The notes under the pieces were generated by a model. It was not told where the DNA came from. It ran no database searches and saw nothing but the letters and a program-made list of their open reading frames with translations. A stretch of DNA of 64,000 nucleotides from a bacterium (lineage in GTDB: Bacteria; Sysuimicrobiota; Sysuimicrobiia; Sysuimicrobiales; Segetimicrobiaceae): contig DATGHZ010000031.1 in NCBI GenBank assembly GCA_035307565.1, positions 29,061-93,060 on the forward strand. Direction: 5' to 3'. Positions 1,862 through 41,629 of the stretch are shown here, one piece after another (position 1 is the first letter of the stretch; each line of letters starts with the position of its first letter). A program made the position numbers and the translations under genes.

Positions 1862-3271
1862 CTATCCCCGCGCTCCCGGGCGTTCGGTCCGGAAACTATC
1901 CACAAGACTTTGAATGCCGGCGTTGAGATGGGCGTCCTCGCCAAGCGCCTGTTTCACTCGATCGCACGCATGCATGACGGTCGTGTGATCACGGCCACCG
2001 AATTCTTCGCCGATTCGGGGCAGCGAGGCATCGGTCAGTTCGCGACACAGGTACATGGCCACCTGACGGGGGAAGGCCACGCCCTTGGTGCGACGCTTGG
2101 CCTTCATCTCTTCGATGCGGAGCCCGAAGAACTCCGATACGGCGCGCTGGATCGCCGGAATCGTCACCGGACGGATCCGTGCCTGCGGAAGCAGCTCTTT
2201 GAGGACGTCGGCCGCGAGGTCGACGGAAATCGGCGTGCGCGCCATTTCGGCGTGGGCCCGGAGGCGGCTCAGCGCCCCTTCCAGTTCCCGGATGTTCGAC
2301 GAGATGCGCTGCGCGATGTACTGTGCCACCTCGTCGGGTACGGCGATGTGGTCCTTTTCCGCTTTCTTGCGGAGGATGGCCACGCGGGTTTCGTAATCCG
2401 GCGGCTGGATGTCGGCGATGAGGCCCCACTCGAACCGTGAGCGCAGCCGGTCCTCGAGGGTCGGGATCTCACGCGGCGCCCGGTCGCTGCTGATGATGAG
2501 CTGCCGGCTGGACTCGTGGAGCGTGTTGAAGGTGTGGAAAAATTCCTCTTGCGTCCGCTCCTTGCCGGCCAGAAATTGGATGTCGTCGATGGCCAGGACG
2601 TCCACATTTCGGTAGCGGTGGCGGAACTCGACCATGCGGTCATCCCGGATCGCGTTGATCAGGTCGTTGGTAAAGCGCTCCGAGGACACGTACATCACCC
2701 GCGCCGCCGGCGAGTGACTGAGCACATTGTGGCCGATGGCCTGCAACAGGTGGGTTTTGCCGAGCCCCACGCCGCCGTAGATGAACAGCGGGTTGTAGGC
2801 GCGGGCCGGGGCCTCCGCAACGGCTTTCGCCGCCGCGTGCGCGAACCGGTTGCCGGCCCCGACGACGAAGGTATCGAACGTGTATTTGCCGGTCAGCGCG
2901 TGGCGTCCGTCGGCCGGGACGCCGTGGACGGCCGCGCCGGGTATCGCCGCCTCGGCGCGCCGCGCCACATCCACGCCGGCGACCACCCCGGCGCCGTGGC
3001 CGTTGCCGTCGCCGTCGGAGACAACAAACCGAATGTCGACGCCGCGGGTCAATACTTCGCGCAGCGTTTCCGCGATCAGCCCGCGGTAGCGGCCTTCCAG
3101 CCACTCTTTGGCGAACATGCTGGGCACGGAAAACACGAAGACGTCCCGGTCCAACGTCAGCGGCCGCATCGCCTTGAGAAAGGCTTCGAAGCTCGGCTTG
3201 CTGAGCTGGCTTTCGATGCGGGCAAGGGCCTCCTGCCAGACCTGACCCGCGGTGATGCTCTGTACGTCCAT
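1862..3271 (-). CDS. dnaA: Chromosomal replication initiator protein DnaA
   Basis: Track ORF, 469 aa: N-terminal domain, AAA+ Walker A GGVGLGKTHLLQAIG, C-terminal DNA-binding domain (...RTKGVAFPRQVAMYLCRELTD...). Confidence 0.97.
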   Translation of the reverse strand: MDVQSITAGQVWQEALARIESQLSKPSFEAFLKAMRPLTLDRDVFVFSVPSMFAKEWLEGRYRGLIAETLREVLTRGVDIRFVVSDGDGNGHGAGVVAGVDVARRAEAAIPGAAVHGVPADGRHALTGKYTFDTFVVGAGNRFAHAAAKAVAEAPARAYNPLFIYGGVGLGKTHLLQAIGHNVLSHSPAARVMYVSSERFTNDLINAIRDDRMVEFRHRYRNVDVLAIDDIQFLAGKERTQEEFFHTFNTLHESSRQLIISSDRAPREIPTLEDRLRSRFEWGLIADIQPPDYETRVAILRKKAEKDHIAVPDEVAQYIAQRISSNIRELEGALSRLRAHAEMARTPISVDLAADVLKELLPQARIRPVTIPAIQRAVSEFFGLRIEEMKAKRRTKGVAFPRQVAMYLCRELTDASLPRIGEEFGGRDHTTVMHACDRVKQALGEDAHLNAGIQSLVDSFRTERPGARG

Positions 3272-3311
3272 CCGACGGCTCCTCCCTCAGGCCCCCGTGC
3301 CGTGGTGTGCG

Positions 3312-5194: not shown

Positions 5195-5455
5195 ATGGCC
5201 GGGGTCGGGGCGATCCGCTGGTACCAGCGTTGGATCTCGCCGCATCTCGCGCCGTCATGCCGGTTCTTCCCCTCATGCTCTGAATATGCCACCGGGGCGG
5301 TCGAGGGCCACGGCCTCCTGAGGGGCGGGTGGCTCGCCGTGCGCCGCCTTCTGCGCTGCCATCCGTTCCATCCAGGCGGCTACGACCCCGTGCCGCCGCA
5401 CCCGGAGGAGACACCGGAGCGCCGTACCGATCCAGGGAGGCCGAGCGTTGTTTAA
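5195..5455 (+). CDS. yidD: Membrane protein insertion efficiency factor YidD
   Basis: Internal ATG in track ORF 5042..5455: [67 protein letters not shown] (YidD/DUF37 signature). Confidence 0.88.
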
Positions 5456-6251
5456 GTTGCTTGGCCCGATCATCAACGTCCTGGCCGCGGTGCTCGCCGC
5501 GCTCCATGGATTCACGCATGACTACACGCTGTCGATCGTGCTGCTCACGCTGATCGTGAAGGCCGTCATTCATCCGCTCACTCGCGTCCAACTGCGCTCG
5601 ATGAAGGCGATGCAGGTCCTCACGCCTCACATGGAGGTGCTGCGCCGCAAGCATAAAGAGGACCCTAAGACGCTGAACCAAGAGATGATGGCTCTCTACC
5701 GCGCCCACAACGTCAACCCCATGATGGGCTGCCTGCCGATGCTCGTGCAGATGCCGGTGCTGTGGGGCCTGTTCAGCCTGCTCTCGCGCCGCGACTTGTT
5801 CGGGACGGCGACCGTCATCGGCATGCCGTGGCTCGGCATGGCGGAACGGCCGATGGGGCGTGTGCTCCAGGCGCTGCCGCAGCACCATCCGGTCTACCTG
5901 CTCGCGCTCATCTTTCCGCTGCTCGTCGGCCTGACGACCTGGTATCAGCAGAAGATGAGCGTCACCGATCCGACGCAGGCGCGGATGTTCGTCTTCATGC
6001 CGATCATGTTCGGCTACTTCGCGCTCAACTACGCCGTCGGACTCTCCATCTACTGGATCGTCTCGACGGCGGCCTACATCGGCGAGTACTTTCTCGTTGT
6101 GGGCCGGCCGCATCCGATGGTGACGGCGCCGCCGAAATCGCAGACGGTCGCGCAGGCGCGCTCGGCGGCGACGCCGGTTCAGGCGGCCGGCAAAACCAAC
6201 GCCCGCCGCCGCCGCGCGCAGCGAGACCAGAAGGGGGCGAAACAGGCGTGA
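5448..6251 (+). CDS. yidC: Membrane protein insertase YidC/Oxa1 family (short Gram-positive form)
   Basis: Track ORF, 267 aa, TTG start, multi-TM; ...[25 protein letters not shown]...; follows rnpA-yidD. Confidence 0.9.
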
Positions 6252-7787: not shown

Positions 7788-7839
7788 ATATCTAACAGTA
7801 TCACCATATATACATCTATTTCCAAACGCGCGGCGGCCG

Positions 7840-8826
7840 GTGCCGAAGCCAAACGGATGTCGCGAGGCCGCGACCGGAGGATTTCGCCGCCGGTCTCGGG
7901 AACACGTCCTCGATCGCAGCACCGTCAAATGGCCAGAGATCGCACTTTGCGACGCAGCATACAGGAGCCAGCGTACGGCGCACGCGTTTGCGATCGTGAA
8001 TCAGAAGGGCGGCGTCGGCAAGTCCACCACCGCCGTCAACCTCGGTGCCTCCCTCGCATCCCTCGGGCATCGCGTCCTCATCGTCGACATGGATCCGCAG
8101 GGCAACGCCACGAGCGGCGTCGGGGTGAACAAAGCGGCGCTCGACTCGGGTACGTACGACGCGGTGGTGCTGGACACGCTCATGGCCGGCGTGATCGTGG
8201 CCACCCCAACCGAGCGGCTCGATATTGTCCCCGCGGACGCGCGCCTCGCGGCCGCGGAGGTGGAACTCGTGCCGCGGATCGGTCGTGAGCTGAAGCTCAA
8301 AGCCGCGCTCGCGCCGGTACTGGACCGCTACGACGTCGTTCTGATCGACTGCCCGCCTTCGCTCGGCCTGCTGACCGTGAACGCGCTCGCGGCGGCGGCG
8401 GCCTGTTTGATTCCGGTGCAGTGCGAGTACTACGCGCTCGAGGGTCTGACTCAGCTGCGTGAGACGATCGGGCTCGTGCGGCGCCACCTTAATCCCGGCC
8501 TGCGCGTGGCGGGCGTGCTGCTCACGATGGTGGACCCACGCACGAAGCTTTCGGATCAGGTGGGCGCGGAGGTCCGCCGCCACTTTGGCGATCTGGTATT
8601 CCACACGGAGGTTCCCAGGAGTGTGCGCCTCGCGGAGGCGCCCAGTTTCGGGCAGCCCGTCATCGCGTATGCGCCCGGCTCCCGCGGCGCGGGTGCCTAC
8701 GCGGCACTGGCGCTCGAGGTCGCCGAGCGCCTCGCTCTCGATCGGCGGGACGCTCACGCCGGCGCTGCGCCGTCGCCTGTGCCGGCGATCCACGCATCCG
8801 GTTCGCGGAGGGACGATCATGATTAA
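7840..8826 (+). CDS. parA: Chromosome partitioning ATPase ParA/Soj (start uncertain)
   Basis: Frame of track ORF 7708..8826; deviant Walker A NQKGGVGKSTTAVNLGASLA. No start codon lies between GTG 7840 and the conserved AFAIVNQKGG, so the product has about 50 extra N-terminal residues and a C-terminal tail. The ATG at 7708 would overlap rsmG by 80 nt. Confidence 0.8.
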   Translation: MPKPNGCREAATGGFRRRSREHVLDRSTVKWPEIALCDAAYRSQRTAHAFAIVNQKGGVGKSTTAVNLGASLASLGHRVLIVDMDPQGNATSGVGVNKAALDSGTYDAVVLDTLMAGVIVATPTERLDIVPADARLAAAEVELVPRIGRELKLKAALAPVLDRYDVVLIDCPPSLGLLTVNALAAAAACLIPVQCEYYALEGLTQLRETIGLVRRHLNPGLRVAGVLLTMVDPRTKLSDQVGAEVRRHFGDLVFHTEVPRSVRLAEAPSFGQPVIAYAPGSRGAGAYAALALEVAERLALDRRDAHAGAAPSPVPAIHASGSRRDDHD

Positions 8827-9667
8827 GCGAGGACTCGGACGCGGCCTGGACGCCCTGATCCCCGGTGCGCCCGCCGAAGCCATTGGATCCGCCACCGAAA
8901 TCGACGTCTTCCGCATCGGGCCCAACCCGTTCCAGCCGCGCCGCGAGATAGCCGGGCCCGAGTTCGACGAGTTGGTCGCGTCCGTGCGCCAGCACGGAGT
9001 CCTCCAGCCGGTGATCGTCCGGCCTAAGGATGCCGGGTATGAGCTCGTGGCGGGCGAGCGGCGGTGGCGGGCCGCCCGAGACGCCGGCCTCGTGACGATC
9101 CCGGCGGTCGTCAGGGACGTTGGGGACCGGGAGATGCTGGAGCTGGCGTTGGTCGAGAACCTGCGCCGGGAGAACCTGAATCCGGTCGAGCGCGCGGCCG
9201 CGTACCGGCGGCTCTCCGATGAATTTCAGATGACGCAGGACCAGGTCGCCGAAACGGTCGGCTCGAGCCGGTCCGCCGTCGCGAATACGCTCAGGCTGCT
9301 GGACCTGCCTGCAGAGGTGCAAAGCGCGCTCGCGCAGGGCCGCATCAGCGAGGGGCACGGCCGCGCGCTGCTCATGGCGCCCGACACCCCGACGCTGCTT
9401 GAGATCTGGAAGGCCGTTGAAGAGAAGGCGCTCTCGGTTCGGGACACGGAGGCGATCGTCCACGGACGGCTCCGGCGTGTTTCACGTGAAACATCGGTGC
9501 GGCGGGGCCGGCGGCGTGATCCTCAACTCGCCGACCTCGAGGTTCAACTCAGGGAGCGCTACAGCACAAGCGCGGCGATCCGCGGTAACGGGACGCGCGG
9601 CGCCGTCGAACTGCGTTATTACTCCTCGCAAGACTTGGAGCGATTGATCGACCTGCTTCTCCGCTAG
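8819..9667 (+). CDS. parB: Chromosome partitioning protein ParB/Spo0J
   Basis: Internal ATG in track ORF 8459..9667: MIKRGLGRGLDALIPGAP...; ParB box GERRWRAA; HTH; overlaps the parA stop. Confidence 0.92.
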   Translation: MIKRGLGRGLDALIPGAPAEAIGSATEIDVFRIGPNPFQPRREIAGPEFDELVASVRQHGVLQPVIVRPKDAGYELVAGERRWRAARDAGLVTIPAVVRDVGDREMLELALVENLRRENLNPVERAAAYRRLSDEFQMTQDQVAETVGSSRSAVANTLRLLDLPAEVQSALAQGRISEGHGRALLMAPDTPTLLEIWKAVEEKALSVRDTEAIVHGRLRRVSRETSVRRGRRRDPQLADLEVQLRERYSTSAAIRGNGTRGAVELRYYSSQDLERLIDLLLR

Positions 9668-29427: not shown

Positions 29428-29553
29428 TCTCGCCTAATTGCCCAAACCGAACAGACTTTCGCCAGGATCGCGGGGCGCGAATACGAAGTCACCAGGTTAC
29501 ATTCGCCGGGCGCGGCCGCGGGTCGCGGCTCAACGCGATGAGGGGGTGTGAGG

Positions 29554-30156
29554 ATGGGCTATAGCGTGGAGGGGCGTTTGCTTGAAGCGTGCTCATGTGC
29601 CGGGCCGTGTCCGTGCTGGGTCGGCGACGATCCGGACGGCGGCACCTGCGATACGGTGGTGTGCTACCACTACGACAAGGGCGAGATCAACGGCGTCAGC
29701 GTGGCGGGTCTCACACTGGCGCTCGTGGCCCACATCCCCGGCAACATCTTGAAGGGCAACTGGAAAGTCGCGGCCCACGTGGACAGCAAGGCGACGCCGC
29801 AGCAGAAAGACGCGATTCTCGCGGCCCATACGGGCAAGCTCGGCGGACCGCTGGGAGACCTCGCGCCGTTGATCGGCGAGGTTGTCGGGGTGTACGACGT
29901 GCCGATCGACTTCAACATCGTCGAGGGCAAGGGGACGCTCCGGATCGGCGATATCGTCTCCGCCGAGATGCAGCCATACACCGACGCGCAGGGCCGGCCG
30001 ACCAAACTCGTCGACTCCATCTTCAGCACCATCCCGGGATCGCCGGCCTACGTCGGCAAGGCGATGAACTTCCGGGTGAATCTACCGAAGCATGACATGA
30101 CATGGGAGTTCAACGGACGCAACGCGGTGCTCGGGCCCTTCAAGTTTGAGGTGTAA
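29554..30156 (+). CDS. DUF1326-family protein (Cys-rich N-terminus)
   Basis: ATG after RBS agggggtg; MGYSVEGRLLEACSCAGPCPCWVGDD... carries the conserved DUF1326 CxC..CPC motif. Confidence 0.7.
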   Translation: MGYSVEGRLLEACSCAGPCPCWVGDDPDGGTCDTVVCYHYDKGEINGVSVAGLTLALVAHIPGNILKGNWKVAAHVDSKATPQQKDAILAAHTGKLGGPLGDLAPLIGEVVGVYDVPIDFNIVEGKGTLRIGDIVSAEMQPYTDAQGRPTKLVDSIFSTIPGSPAYVGKAMNFRVNLPKHDMTWEFNGRNAVLGPFKFEV

Positions 30157-30207
30157 CGGCGCGCCTCGCACGAGGCGGGAGACGTCCGGGCTAGGGCACC
30201 CGCGGCC

Positions 30208-30999
30208 ATGATCGGCGTGGTCCGCACGGCCGACGACCAGCGGTGGTACCGTCTGGCCGTGGGGACGCTGGTGCTGCTGGCGTGGGCCGTGCTCGCCGCC
30301 TGGGGCGCATCGCCGTTCGCCGGACTACTCGACCACCGGGGGATCGGAGGGGGATCGCTCTCCGTCTCCCGGGTGGTCGTGTTCGTGGCCGGGTGGACCC
30401 TCATGGTGATCGCCATGATGCTGCCCGGCAGCCTGCCGCTGATCAACCTCTTCTCCCGGATGGCCGCCGCGCGCTCCGGTGGGCCGTCGCTGGTGGCGCG
30501 GCTCGTCCTCGGCTATCTCGGTGTGTGGGCCGCCTTCGGCGCGGCCGCGTTCCGGGCCGACGCGTACGTGCACGCCGCGGTCGCGCGCACCCCGGCGGTG
30601 GCCCAGGCATCGGAGTGGATCGGCGTCGCGGTTCTGCTGGTAGCCGGTGTCTACCAAGTGACGCCCCTCAAGGACATGTGCCTCACCAAGTGCCGGTCGC
30701 CCTACTTATTTCTCGCCGAACACTGGCGAGGCCACACGCCCGCCCGGGACGCGCTGGCGTTGGGCGCGCGGCACGGGCTCTTTTGCGTCGGCTGCTGCTG
30801 GACGCTCATGCTGCTCATGTTCGCCGTGGGCGGCGTGAACTTGGGCTGGATGCTGGCGCTCGGCGCGCTGATGGCGGCCGAACGGTCGTTCCGCTGGGGC
30901 CGCCACCTCACGGTGCCCGTGGGCGCGGCGTGTCTGCTCGCCGCGATCGGTCTCGTCTACCGCGTGCCGTTGATCGCCGGGGTGTTTCGCGGCTCGTAG
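30208..30999 (+). CDS. DUF2182-family integral membrane protein (predicted metal-binding)
   Basis: Track ORF, 263 aa, about 6 TM; conserved ...LKDMCLTKCRSP... and ...FCVGCCW... motifs. Typically partners DUF1326. Confidence 0.7.
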   Translation: MIGVVRTADDQRWYRLAVGTLVLLAWAVLAAWGASPFAGLLDHRGIGGGSLSVSRVVVFVAGWTLMVIAMMLPGSLPLINLFSRMAAARSGGPSLVARLVLGYLGVWAAFGAAAFRADAYVHAAVARTPAVAQASEWIGVAVLLVAGVYQVTPLKDMCLTKCRSPYLFLAEHWRGHTPARDALALGARHGLFCVGCCWTLMLLMFAVGGVNLGWMLALGALMAAERSFRWGRHLTVPVGAACLLAAIGLVYRVPLIAGVFRGS

Positions 31000-39798: not shown

Positions 39799-40530
39799 GA
39801 GGCTCTGTGATTCCGCAAGGTGCCGGGTCTTCCTGCCGCACGGGATCCGCGGGCGGCACAGCCGAGACGCGCCGGCGCCGCTGCCCGGCTATGCGGCATG
39901 GCCGGATGGAGGCTGCGCGAGTCCCTTACCCGCGGGCGCTTACGCGATCAAGCGGTTTTGGCCTCGTCCTCGCTGGTGAATCGCGTCCATCCTTCCGCGC
40001 GCTTGTCGTAACGGCGGGCGTCGTGGGCGCCGGCGCGCCGCAGCGTGCGGGCGATCTCGTTCCCACGCCTATCCGGCGTCCGCGCGGCCACCAATGTCTC
40101 GCCGCTCTCGATCCGATCTTCGTACCAGTTTCGGGGCTCGTCGGCGGCCCTTCACCGGTTCTTCACCTGAGGGTGGTACGGTGCGATAGCTACACTGAAC
40201 GGGCTATCAAGAGCTGCCGGGCGCCCGGTTGTAACGATCTACCCCCTTCCCGGCAACACAGACCCAATAGGACAAGGCCGGCGGTGGGCTCTCGCCATCG
40301 ACGGCCGGCTGGCCACCGGGCGCCCGGTCAGCAATCTTTGACCGCTTCCCGCGATTCTGCAAGGTTTTTGCATCCGACCTTCATTATTTATTCATCAGTT
40401 TTTCAACGCCGGTTCCTATTCTTTTAGGTACAACAGAGCGCGGGCAGCTTCGCAAGGGGACCCGACCAGCGCTGGAGCCGGGCATCCCCGCCCCGCCGGG
40501 AAGCGCGCGCGACTCGGATGGGAGGGGTGA

Positions 40531-41541
40531 ATGCGGAAGTCGGTCGCACTCGTACTCGGGGTGCTGGTACCGCTCCTGAGCCTCGCCGGCGTGGGAAATG
40601 CGCAGTCCACCGTGCAGGTTCAAGGGACGATCCAGGCCGTCGATTGCCAGGCGCAGACGCTCGTCGTGGCGACCCGGAACGGCGTCAATACGATCGCGGT
40701 AGCCCCATACACCGCGGTGCTGGTCGATTCCCAGGCTGTGTCTCTCTGCGACCTGCAGAGCTATGTAGGCAGCCCCGCGACGGTTTGGCTCGTCGCGAAC
40801 GGCAATGAATTCGTCGCCACCCGCATCGATACCACGGTGCAGGGCACCGTGGCGCCCGTGACGGTGGCGTCGCCCGTGCAGGCGAGCGTCTCGCCGCTTC
40901 CCATCGTCGGGGTGGTGCTCGGCACGATCGCCCTCGCCGGTCTTATCTACCTTCTAGTACGCGACCACGACAGATACTACCGGTACCCGTATTACGGCGA
41001 TTACTACACGTACTACTACAACCCGGTCTACCGGCCATACTACGGGTCGTATCCGGCGATATGCCCGATCGTGTTTGCTCCGGCGCCGATCACCGGCTTT
41101 GTGCTAGGCGTCTCGGTGTTCGACGGCTATGACTACTTGATCGTGCGTGACCACGACGGCCGTTTCGCGCGGTACCCGTACTTTGGGCCTTATCGTGAGC
41201 ACTACTACCGGCCGGAGTACCGCGCGTATGCGGGACCATATCGCGACGCACCGGTGCGCTACGGTGAATGGCGTCGTGACGGCGGAGCACCCGGTCAGCG
41301 GCCATACTACAACAACAATTACAATCGGGGGCCGCAACAGTACCAGCAGCCGCAGCGGCCGAGCTACAACAACAACTACAACTACAATCGCGGACCGGCG
41401 CAGTACCAGCAGCCACAGCGGCCGAGCTACAACTACAATCAGGGGAACGGATACAATCGCGGAGGCAGCTACAGCGGCGGCCGGGGTCAGGACACCCGGC
41501 GCACGTGCAATTCGCGCGGCGATTCCTGCTCCAACCGCTGA
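40531..41541 (+). CDS. Tyr/Asn/Gln/Arg-rich low-complexity secreted or membrane protein with internal duplication and tandem repeats
   Basis: Track ORF, 336 aa. Signal peptide MRKSVALVLGVLVPLLSLAGVGNA. Two copies of a (hydrophobic helix + LxVRDHD..YPYY) module. C-terminus repeats YNNNYNRGPQQYQQPQRPS. Confidence 0.7.
   Translation: MRKSVALVLGVLVPLLSLAGVGNAQSTVQVQGTIQAVDCQAQTLVVATRNGVNTIAVAPYTAVLVDSQAVSLCDLQSYVGSPATVWLVANGNEFVATRIDTTVQGTVAPVTVASPVQASVSPLPIVGVVLGTIALAGLIYLLVRDHDRYYRYPYYGDYYTYYYNPVYRPYYGSYPAICPIVFAPAPITGFVLGVSVFDGYDYLIVRDHDGRFARYPYFGPYREHYYRPEYRAYAGPYRDAPVRYGEWRRDGGAPGQRPYYNNNYNRGPQQYQQPQRPSYNNNYNYNRGPAQYQQPQRPSYNYNQGNGYNRGGSYSGGRGQDTRRTCNSRGDSCSNR
41306..41443 (+). repeat. Imperfect tandem repeat (about 57-63 nt x 2.3) inside the Tyr-rich gene
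   Basis: tacaacaacaattacaatcgggggccgcaacagtaccagcagccgcagcggccgagc, then tacaacaacaactacaactacaatcgcggaccggcgcagtaccagcagccacagcggccgagc, then a partial third copy. Confidence 0.7.
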
Positions 41542-41629
41542 CGCATCGGTAAGCGAGTAAGACGCACCACGACGATGGCCGCGGCCCCCCGGGCCGCGGC
41601 CATCGTCTCGTCATCCGCGGGAACGCGAC

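Follow-up and report, generated by a model that had tools for sequence, protein, structure and literature searches.

A phylum-restricted family of tyrosine-rich proteins from Sysuimicrobiota, tentatively assigned to the cell envelope

The window, a 64,000-nt stretch of a Sysuimicrobiota contig, contains a gene at 40531..41541 whose product belongs to a previously undescribed protein family. We propose, tentatively and with a probability of about 0.45, that this is a Sec-exported cell-envelope protein, confined to one phylum, which works as a surface 'sticker' and stands under the control of a response regulator. The head and the duplicated module of the protein would be displayed outside the cytoplasmic membrane, and the unusually apolar first module copy would keep it cell-bound by lying either within the membrane or hidden in an interface of self-assembly. 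Multivalent stickers would be formed by its aromatic modules and Arg/Tyr-rich tail, to which anionic polymers of the envelope or the environment, or further copies of the protein, would bind, while gain and loss of repeats would tune the length of the tail between strains. Transcription would be activated by a regulator of the OmpR/PhoB family through three TTCAY repeats. The layout recognised in the initial annotation, i.e., a signal peptide, an N-terminal domain of ordinary composition, a duplicated module and a low-complexity repeat tail, is borne out; the reading of the protein as a spore component that accompanied it is not.

A conserved gene in an uncultured phylum

40520..40527, + strand: Shine-Dalgarno sequence GGGAGGGG, read directly from the sequence, with the ATG 3 nt downstream
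40531..41541, + strand: coding sequence, ATG start, 336 amino acids

The predicted protein is identical (100%) to NCBI HLW48086.1, a 'hypothetical protein' of a metagenome-assembled genome (MAG) labelled 'bacterium'. We count the gene as real because it has 142 homologues, a dN/dS of 0.13-0.22 against four orthologues and a GC3 of 0.79, and by these measures it is under purifying selection; the initial annotation had allowed that the frame might lack conservation, which is evidently not the case. A GGAGG motif precedes the start codon in orthologues too. The composition of the protein is unusual, with 11.9% Y, 10.7% V, 9.8% G, 8.3% R, 6.5% Q and 6.2% N, and its single lysine (0.3%) lies within the signal peptide.

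All 142 homologues are unannotated, and the family amounts to 45 clusters at 50% identity among 1.84 billion representative sequences. Its members sit in MAGs that carry the labels ANGP1, Bacillota or 'bacterium', and ANGP1 NP_3 is classified as p__CSP1-3; judged by these assignments, the family is restricted to MAGs of CSP1-3/Sysuimicrobiota. There is no further copy of the gene within the 64-kb window, and several genomes carry 2-4 paralogues. To our knowledge this phylum has no cultured member. In soils its relative abundance can be as high as 22.6% (PMC11604079).

The gene has no conserved neighbours beyond close orthologues. A copper-chaperone pair, DUF1326-PpoB2, which might have hinted at a tyrosinase, was considered and rejected as a coincidence, since it lies near the gene in two contexts only (the window with contig L001, and L030/L031), and no tyrosinase was found linked to the gene. 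On present evidence the family has no bearing on any long-standing open question. It is nevertheless a good candidate marker and entry point for work on the envelope, and on surface or nutrient responses, in CSP1-3, because it is phylum-specific, multi-copy in several genomes and under purifying selection, because its module is unmatched in Pfam and the PDB, and because its tail varies in length between near-identical strains.

A signal peptide and a predicted barrel-like head

40531..40602, + strand: Sec-type signal peptide, residues 1-24, MRKSVALVLGVLVPLLSLAGVGNA followed by QS (from hydropathy and conservation)
40603..40842, + strand: OB-fold-like beta-barrel head, residues 25-104 (AlphaFold2, Foldseek)

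The signal peptide is built of MRK, a hydrophobic core of 17 residues (Kyte-Doolittle peak 2.26) and a GNA end followed by QS, and 30 homologues all retain G22, A24 and Q25. It contains no twin-arginine motif, and its conservation points to export of the protein by the Sec route.

This bears directly on the reading advanced in the initial annotation, that of a structural protein of the spore coat or exosporium cross-linked through dityrosine, which we now consider highly improbable. In endospore formers, coat and exosporium proteins lack signal peptides and are synthesised in the cytoplasm of the mother cell from sigmaE or sigmaK promoters, so that 'secreted' is at odds with 'spore coat'. Bacillus subtilis CotC, CotU and CotG are Tyr-rich and tandemly repeated; these two traits, and possible oxidative cross-links between tyrosines, are common to the window protein and to the Bacillus coat and exosporium proteins, and a match to the Pfam family Spore_YtrH in two of 30 members might be thought to point the same way, although at a best E of 0.29 it is at chance level. 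Unlike CotC, CotU and CotG, however, the window protein has a conserved Sec-type signal peptide and a promoter of the response-regulator type, a direct-repeat activator site conserved across the family; it has no homology to them, and no coat family was matched at significance in Pfam or NCBIfam, or in Pfam searches with 30 homologues. A look upstream of the gene for a promoter of a sporulation sigma factor had been proposed, and none of the -10 patterns of Bacillus subtilis sigmaE, F, G and K, which may not be the consensus in this phylum, occurs in 40300-40530. Sporulation genes were not seen among the annotated neighbours. Nor is the phylum reported to sporulate: two papers devoted to CSP1-3 are silent on sporulation, and 'sporul', 'endospore' and 'spo0A' are absent from the supplements of one of them. 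A role in the spore coat is thus not supported.

Behind the signal peptide, AlphaFold2 predicts the head with a pLDDT of 92-97 at residues ~31-100, and Foldseek aligns residues ~28-101 with CusF in the PDB (E 1.2e-4, target TM-score 0.68-0.72), while neither the window protein nor 30 homologues yielded a Pfam match for this region. The small periplasmic OB-fold domains CusF and SilF have the same five-stranded barrel and likewise follow a signal peptide, but identity between CusF and the head is 11-13%, that is, without sequence similarity. The Cu(I)/Ag(I) site of CusF consists of His, Met, Met and Trp. This site is missing from the window head, since residues 25-104 include neither Met nor His; two invariant cysteines are present instead. 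These, C39 and C73, belong to the invariant head residues together with D38, T54, L75, Y78 and G80, and they probably form a disulfide. The linker that follows the head is short and composed of Pro, Ala and Val; in some homologues it is long and Pro/Tyr-rich.

The duplicated module and the question of topology

40894..41070, + strand: module 1, residues 122-180, PLPIVGVVLGTIALAGLIYLLV (a fully apolar 20-mer) then RDHDRYYRYPYYGDYYTYYYNPVYRPYYGSYPA
41077..41259, + strand: module 2, residues 183-243, APITGFVLGVSVFDGYDYLIV then RDHDGRFARYPYFGPYREHYYRPEYRAYAGPYRDAPV

The two modules (residues ~122-180 and ~183-243) share 53% consensus identity over 59 columns, and hhalign relates them with a probability of 99.9% (E = 1.2e-32). 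No relative could be found outside the family: the window protein has no Pfam or NCBIfam match at E <= 1, the best hits of PDB sequences against the family profile (E 1.1) and of the two-module model against the PDB by Foldseek (E 0.59) are not significant, and a literature search on the RYPYYG motif brought up nothing relevant.

Each module had initially been described as opening with a hydrophobic helix. For module 2 this does not hold, as a beta-hairpin is predicted in both AlphaFold2 runs, with a pLDDT of mostly ~90, and is followed by a third strand and a short helix. For module 1 the description stands in one model and falls in the other, its segment being a beta-hairpin (pLDDT >90) in the full-length model and a helix (pLDDT 93) when residues 118-251 are modelled alone. 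The turn dipeptide of module 2 is rich in G, N, D or S family-wide, and this, with the hairpin predicted there, suggests that the module is a beta unit. The 20-residue segment of module 1 is nearly devoid of polar residues in ~100 sequences, and the rare polar substitutions gather at the predicted turn, residues 135-137.

The two copies differ markedly in their affinity for membranes. Module 1 has a Kyte-Doolittle hydropathy of 2.62 and, on the translocon scale of Hessa et al. 2005, an energy sum of about -2 kcal/mol in the window protein; across homologues the sums average -1.25 kcal/mol for module 1, where 83% fall below zero, and +3.05 kcal/mol for module 2, where 8% do. Module 2 is not membrane-like, because its sum is positive, and it tolerates the polar residues that module 1 shuns.

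These figures are the chief ground for an alternative topology, which we regard as possible, with the odds somewhat against it. The protein would be a type I (bitopic) membrane protein with a cleaved signal peptide and an external OB head on a Pro-rich stalk; the 20-mer of module 1 would be its transmembrane helix, and the Tyr-rich stretch, module 2, the basic tail and the terminal cysteine pair would all be cytoplasmic, perhaps as a membrane-tethered scaffold that binds nucleic acid or polyphosphate or forms an Arg-Tyr condensate, possibly coupled to sensing by the head outside. During Sec export, an apolar segment of this kind would be expected to behave as a stop-transfer signal. PLP precedes the segment and Y-L-L-V-R/H follows it, the next 15 residues containing three Arg, in agreement with the positive-inside rule; single-module homologues have long Pro/Tyr-rich stalks immediately before it; and two degenerate homologues (P0120, P0158) have lost the Tyr motif and retain the apolar segment. 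The helix in the truncated model points in the same direction. With a membrane helix in module 1, the Tyr-rich parts would lie in the cytoplasm together with the tail, and the proposed role as a surface sticker would fall; secretion of the tail is in doubt because the segment may be such a stop-transfer anchor.

Several observations are nevertheless awkward for a bitopic protein. Module 1 aligns position by position with its homologue module 2, a predicted beta-hairpin, and is itself a hairpin in the full-length model. The Asp, Arg and Ser substitutions found in the segment fall at its centre, the worst place for a transmembrane helix, and homologues that lack the OB head would be left with an ectodomain of ~9 residues behind the signal peptide. 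In two further homologues (P0150, P0151) a polar version of the hairpin module follows a predicted N-terminal signal and an exported domain, in P0150 with a weak T2SSC-like match, and no hydrophobic segment intervenes, so that the context is wholly exported; a distant single-module homologue (P0153) has a polar hairpin too. Judging by these polar single-module proteins, the module can sit outside the membrane. The cysteine pair at the C-terminus, discussed below, also fits an oxidising compartment better than the cytoplasm. A separate model, in which both segments form a two-transmembrane hairpin, was rejected because the second segment, which has a positive energy sum, contains three prolines as well as Q, E and R variants, and because single- and double-module proteins share one C-terminal Cys motif.

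The exported envelope protein that we favour has structural analogues elsewhere. The order of a functional head, a Pro-rich linker and an apolar segment is shared with Gram-positive surface proteins, where the linker is a wall-spanning stalk, and the long chaplins of Streptomyces likewise carry an apolar, beta-prone module once or twice in an exported protein with a Cys pair. There is no sequence similarity to either group, however; the window protein is without LPXTG or any other known sorting signal, and its Tyr-rich RYPYYG part and basic repeat tail have no counterpart in them.

The low-complexity tail and the cysteine end

41260..41505, + strand: net-positive low-complexity tail, predicted to be disordered, residues 244-325, with two repeats of 19/21 aa
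41309..41438, + strand: tandem DNA repeat of 63 nt (57/63), 2.1 copies (TRF)
41506..41541, + strand: cysteine loop C326-x6-C333, then SNR and the stop codon

Six residue types make up 80% of the 91 residues from 246 to 336 (N15, R13, G13, Q12, Y12 and P8), and the pLDDT lies below 50 from residue 251 on. The tandem DNA repeat (86% matches, score 197 by TRF) encodes RPYYNNNYNRGPQQYQQPQRPS / SYNNNYNYNRGPAQYQQPQRPS. Such a repeat had been predicted to produce length polymorphism, and this holds unless it is an artefact of assembly: repeat number is essentially all that distinguishes related proteins of 336, 355 and 395 aa, which have 2, 3 and 5 copies among strains of 99.9% identity, the counts being taken from short-read assemblies, in which repeats of 57-63 nt can be collapsed or expanded. 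The window and contig L001, for example, are 99.9% identical at the nucleotide level over 21 kb, yet they differ in the repeat.

Across the family it is the composition of the tail that is conserved and not its sequence. Among 82 family tails the median length is 125 aa, 98% are net positive and 55 contain tandem repeats, which turn over rapidly, are lineage-specific and have periods of 10-43 aa; the pooled composition is 19.6% P, 15.6% Q, 10.6% R, 9.5% G, 8.4% N and 0.1% K. Prion-like domains are stretches of 60 aa or more that are high in N+Q and poor in hydrophobic and charged residues. The term 'prion-like', applied to the tail in the initial annotation, therefore fits only the composition of the tail in the window strain, with 33% N+Q over 76 aa (net charge +7), and does not extend to the family, where tails are P/Q/R-rich and net positive.

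Composition of this kind raises the prospect of a self-assembling extracellular matrix or functional amyloid, in which fibres would arise by stacking of the apolar hairpins and the Q/N/Y repeats, comparable to a chaplin, curli or a prion-like domain and possibly hardened by oxidative Tyr cross-links. The AlphaFold2 model of an exported protein exposing an apolar beta-hairpin would suit this role, as would the 12% Tyr and the expansion of paralogues within genomes. The oligopeptide repeat of yeast Sup35 is PQGGYQQYN, and the window repeats resemble it in composition; the N-domain of Sup35 and the prion domain of Clostridium botulinum Rho likewise have short Q/N/Y/G-rich repeats (here YNNNYNRGPQQYQQPQRPS), predicted disorder and variable copy number. 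With 13 Arg among 91 residues, however, the window tail is highly basic; tails are Pro-rich family-wide, this one is attached to an exported or membrane protein, and tails so rich in P and R disfavour amyloid cores. With tails conserved in composition alone, no oxidase, laccase or peroxidase as a conserved neighbour and no likeness in sequence or fold found to known amyloid proteins, we think a fibrous matrix quite unlikely.

An analogy for an envelope sticker may be found in mussel foot proteins. Mfp-3 and Mfp-5 are exported, disordered proteins dominated by Y, N, R and G, although they are eukaryotic and DOPA-dependent. They share with the window protein a Y/N/R/G-rich disorder and motifs such as NYNR and GYNRGG; there is no homology, and the comparison is one of analogy alone, which suggests adhesion by cation-pi interactions and hydrogen bonding.

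The tail is followed by a cysteine pair, C326 and C333, each conserved at >= 90%, within a family consensus of approximately C-x(4-10)-C and a short, usually basic end. The same motif terminates single-module and short-tailed homologues, and one tail (P0132) contains three further Cys-pair mini-domains. Cysteine pairs at both ends of the protein, together with these mini-domains, suggest an oxidising compartment.

A putative response-regulator-type promoter and a strong terminal hairpin

40380..40412, + strand: three direct repeats in 11-bp phase, TTCATTATTTA TTCATCAGTTT TTCAACGCCGG, a putative site for an OmpR/PhoB-family response regulator
40417..40422, + strand: -10-like hexamer TATTCT (TANNNT), exactly 10 nt after the TTCAA core of the third repeat
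41571..41607, strand not assigned: perfect 17-bp GC-rich hairpin with a 3-nt loop between convergent genes, a putative terminator without a U-tract

The upstream repeats are detected by TRF as a period of 11 with 2.4 copies at 40380-40405. Sixteen related loci have the exact pattern TTCAY-N6-TTCAY-N6-TTCRA upstream of their family genes, and it is absent from the rest of 466 kb. TATTCT is the sole TANNNT hexamer in 40300-40530, and its 10-nt distance from the repeat core recurs in related loci, which would place the start of transcription near 40429 and give a leader of ~100 nt. No sigma-70 pair of -35 and -10 elements was found, and the direct repeats putatively stand in for the -35 element. 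Compared with shuffled sequences, the leader has no excess of structure (z +0.94), and no riboswitch or structured leader was matched in Rfam even at E <= 1.

Many OmpR-family regulators use 11-bp direct repeats. In Streptomyces coelicolor, PHO boxes consist of direct repeats of 11 nt whose core is GTTCACC (PMC4415409), and the window promoter resembles these PhoP sites in its head-to-tail 11-nt repeats, its TTCAC/T core and its overlap with the -35 position; the architecture described for PHO boxes in that work, at least two 11-nt direct-repeat units over the -35 position, is present at 40380-40412. The window promoter has three units, and similar sites are used by other OmpR-family regulators. 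Its closest known counterpart is the PHO box of high-GC Gram-positive bacteria, and its function is putative. Among the metagenome matches to the motif that were listed, most are low-GC chance matches; 15 high-GC loci have the repeat pattern, and of these three have a pstS-type gene downstream (L035, L143/L147) and one (L091) has the pattern before a gene for an OmpR-type regulator. Neither the window nor any of 31 related loci contains a pstS, and support for a Pho link is indirect and cross-lineage. The architecture is that of an activator site, and therefore expression probably rises in response to a nutrient or an envelope signal, perhaps phosphate limitation.

A more specific version of the sticker proposal follows from the last of these signals, and we consider it unlikely: a polycationic Tyr/Arg surface sticker of Sysuimicrobiota, induced by phosphate starvation through PhoP-type activation at the triple PHO-box-like repeat. 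The Arg/Tyr-rich modules and the tail would capture anionic polymers that contain phosphorus (extracellular DNA, phytate, polyphosphate, teichoic acids), or alternatively would fasten the cell to phosphorus-bearing mineral surfaces, with avidity set by repeat number. If true, this reading would add a new class of Pho-regulon effector with a new protein fold, in a phylum that ranks among the most abundant uncultured ones of soil. The conserved promoter motif in any case offers a cheap and concrete handle for defining a response-regulator regulon, possibly Pho, in an uncultured phylum.

At the other end of the gene, the hairpin after the stop codon folds with -51.6 kcal/mol (z -4.59), and none of 200 shuffled sequences folds as well. 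Given this strong hairpin and neighbours that are not conserved across distant orthologues, the gene is most simply taken as a monocistronic, stand-alone unit.

Gene identity and lineage

The gene studied here, its ribosome-binding region and its promoter repeats lie as follows:
40380-40412 (+): triple direct repeat in 11-bp phase, TTCATTATTTA, TTCATCAGTTT, TTCAACGCCGG
directly preceding the ORF (+): Shine-Dalgarno region, GGGAGGGG
40531-41541 (+): family gene, ORF of 336 aa with ATG start

Judged by its sequence, the ORF is a real gene under purifying selection, because dN/dS is 0.13-0.22 (first 245 codons, window gene against four orthologues), GC3 is 0.79, and 142 homologues, none of them named, were retrieved from 5.8 billion clustered proteins; conservation, which the initial annotation had made a test of the ORF, is thus evident. 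The window protein is 100% identical to HLW48086.1 at NCBI, annotated as 'hypothetical protein' in a MAG that bears just the label 'bacterium'. Searches of Pfam, NCBIfam and PDB sequences gave no significant family match for the window protein, nor did Pfam for its homologues, and a two-module profile matched only 45 of 1.84 billion cluster representatives, so the family is narrow. Repeat-tailed exported envelope proteins are familiar as a general kind; the Tyr-rich module, the protein family and the promoter motif are undescribed.

MAGs with family members carry the labels bacterium, Bacillota, Firmicutes, Bacillati bacterium ANGP1, Armatimonadota or Chloroflexota. Among these MAGs, ANGP1 NP_3 (locus L013) is assigned to p__CSP1-3, f__NP-7; it serves as type genome for Ca. 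Segetimicrobium genomatis and has a GC content of 68.9% (Sysuimicrobiota paper supplement, PMC11604079); that of the window is 67.8%. The gene is single-copy in the window, and several genomes hold 2-4 paralogues. The window also carries dnaA and a YidC-type insertase gene (1865-3286, -, and 5322-6248, +), and therefore adjoins the chromosomal replication origin region.

Domain architecture and topology

The N-terminus (MRK, a 17-residue apolar core, then GNA|QS, with G22, A24 and Q25 invariant among the homologues aligned) looks like a Sec signal peptide, as originally claimed. Tyrosine makes up 11.9% of the window protein, and N, R, G, Q, Y and P together 80% of its C-terminal 91 residues. 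Lysine is nearly avoided family-wide (K 0.4% against R 7.4% in the window protein and homologues P0001-P0161) and absent from the mature window protein, an avoidance beyond what high GC content alone would explain.

AlphaFold2, applied to the full length with 95 aligned sequences, gave pLDDT >90 at residues ~31-100 and ~121-245, and <50 from residue 251. The head (residues 28-101), with invariant C39 and C73, is modelled as an all-beta barrel that comes closest in the PDB to CusF and SilF (E 1e-4, target TM-score 0.68-0.72); the barrel fold is the same, but the head domain has no Met or His, and the CusF metal site is consequently missing.

The internal duplication reported by the initial annotation joins true homologues: module profiles built from 95 family members align (residues 120-180 against 183-243) at E = 1.2e-32 (probability 99.9%), their consensus sequences being 53% identical. 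Each module of the full-length model comprises a beta-hairpin (128-135/138-145 in module 1, 190-197/200-206 in module 2), a third strand formed by YYRYPY, and a short helix, and comparison of the two-module model with PDB folds gave nothing significant (best E 0.59). When residues 118-251 were run, module 2 stayed beta (pLDDT mostly ~90) and the apolar segment of module 1 became a helix, so that the hydrophobic helix once assigned to each module fails for module 2 in both runs and holds for module 1 in the shorter one only.

That segment, PLPIVGVVLGTIALAGLIYLLV, is also where the topology turns, for it might be the membrane anchor of a type I membrane protein. Its Kyte-Doolittle value is 2.6, polar residues are almost absent from it in ~100 sequences but tolerated in module 2, some homologues have Pro-rich 'stalks' ahead of it, and the shorter AlphaFold2 run makes it helical; translocon-scale energies (a simple sum on the scale of Hessa et al. 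2005) average -1.25 kcal/mol and are negative in 83% of homologues, compared with a module 2 average of +3.05 kcal/mol, negative in 8%. Yet it matches the hairpin of module 2, with its G/N/D/S-rich turn, residue for residue, is itself a hairpin at pLDDT >90 in the full-length model, and admits its rare polar substitutions (D135, S/R137, 'DSG', 'DAG') at the predicted turn, which would be the centre of a helix. Two homologues, P0150 and P0151, have a polar version of the module and no other apolar segment after the signal, which makes the module there a soluble exported unit; moreover, the Cys pairs conserved at the far C-terminus and in the mini-domains of P0132 (below) fit an oxidising compartment. 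We place the exported tail slightly ahead of the membrane anchor. A two-helix hairpin is unlikely, given that the second segment is Pro-rich, has Q/E/R variants and a positive energy sum, and that the C-terminal motif is common to single- and double-module proteins.

Among 82 two-module homologues the tail has a median length of 125 aa (range 49-251), is net positive in 98%, and contains tandem repeats in 55, with lineage-specific units of 10-43 aa; its pooled composition is P 19.6, Q 15.6, R 10.6, G 9.5, N 8.4, Y 6.4 and K 0.1%. The repeat units being lineage-specific and the composition shared, it is composition that is conserved and not sequence, and the term 'prion-like' suits the composition of this strain's tail but not that of the family, which is rich in P, Q and R. 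Nearly all members close with a Cys-x(4-10)-Cys loop and a short, usually basic end. Some have a single module, lack the OB head or gain a Cu_amine_oxidN1 domain, and the P0150/P0151 subgroup has a different exported N-domain. The C-terminal 250 residues of the homologue P0132 (666 aa) hold three ~40-aa Cys-pair mini-domains, KPAYFVFSNNKPGPxFKTLxEC-x12-C, without a Pfam match, which may be a further undescribed extracytoplasmic module.

Repeat copy number

Tandem Repeats Finder places a 63-nt period at 41309-41438 (2.1 copies, 86% matches, score 197), coding for ...YNNNYNRGPQQYQQPQRPS / YNNNYNYNRGPAQYQQPQRPS, and the DNA repeat does mirror the protein repeat as had been noticed. The near-identical contig L001 aligns at 99.9% identity over 21 kb, interrupted only at this repeat. 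The predicted length polymorphism is borne out by 2 repeats in the window, 3 in the L001 protein (P0002, 355 aa) and 5 in two SRR5579864 sequences (395 aa), all from short-read assemblies, which can miscount 57-63-nt repeats; another homologue cluster has lengths of 408 and 421 aa.

Promoter and transcription unit

The flanking genes vary between distant orthologues and are always divergent or convergent. A perfect, GC-rich 17-bp hairpin with a 3-nt loop and no U-tract (41571-41607, z -4.6) begins 30 nt after the stop, between the family gene and a convergent FAD-monooxygenase gene, and is probably a bidirectional terminator. Given these flanks and the strong hairpin, the gene is probably transcribed alone.

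Upstream of it we found no sigma-70-like -35/-10 pair, and the sporulation-sigma promoter sought there did not appear either, at least as a Bacillus-type -10 pattern, whose consensus may not be the host's; direct repeats stand there instead. TATTCT, the only TANNNT hexamer among the 232 nt upstream, lies exactly 10 nt past the TTCAA core of the third repeat (whole element 40380-40422). The exact motif TTCAY-N6-TTCAY-N6-TTCRA precedes the family gene in 16 related loci, with constant orientation and 10-nt spacing to TANNNT, and has no other occurrence across 466 kb of related DNA; it stands upstream of every family gene examined (window, L002-L013 and L027-L029). On sequence grounds, three 11-bp repeats and a -10 have the architecture of an OmpR/PhoB-family activator site, PHO-box-like; PHO boxes likewise consist of 11-nt direct repeat units, whose core in Streptomyces coelicolor is GTTCACC (PMC4415409).

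A metagenome scan with a degenerate repeat pattern plus the -10 hexamer listed mostly low-GC, chance matches. Among the matches listed, 15 loci had GC of at least 0.58, and in three of these (L035, and L143 and L147, which are orthologous to each other) the next gene downstream encodes a PstS-type phosphate-binding protein (PBP_like_2); they represent two independent high-GC lineages. In another of the 15 (L091), from a third lineage, an OmpR-type receiver/response-regulator gene follows. The PstS-type enrichment among listed high-GC matches supports a PHO-box-type identity of the pattern in high-GC bacteria; Pho control of the family itself, argued from pstS promoters outside this phylum, has roughly even odds.

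Function

Most likely, then, the family consists of phylum-specific, Sec-exported envelope proteins. Their parts (a small OB head, one or two aromatic beta-modules and a polycationic, disordered repeat tail) suggest, from sequence, display and multivalent binding rather than catalysis. The length of the tail would drift between strains, and the gene would be switched on upon demand via a response regulator. The spore-coat role first envisaged is disfavoured by the signal peptide, a promoter of another type and the lack of homology. A phosphate-starvation link would, if true, raise the interest of the family, as would a membrane-tethered cytoplasmic low-complexity tail.

Neighbouring loci

A DUF1326 and PpoB2 (copper-chaperone-like membrane protein) pair lies 10 kb from the family gene (29542-30996, +) and, in contig L030 (4504-5938, -), 1 kb from a 42%-identical member; the pair is absent from other contexts, and the link is probably coincidence. 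A 206-aa Arg-rich ORF (39807-40427, +), called as a gene in L001 and overlapping the promoter region, is probably a false prediction of the sort common in high-GC DNA; its counterpart region in L029 has a different ORF call on the opposite strand. Upstream of a divergent Liv-type ABC transporter operon, the intergenic block 39950-40129 shares 78% identity over 180 nt with its orthologous counterpart in L029. It contains neither a conserved ORF nor any Rfam match, even with the threshold relaxed to E <= 1, and may serve the operon as a leader or regulatory element. In contig L022 a 2-mismatch copy of the repeat motif (8809-8835) follows closely on a family paralogue (7797-8705); the gene after this copy (8899-9513) encodes 204 aa including a signal peptide and is possibly a second regulon member.
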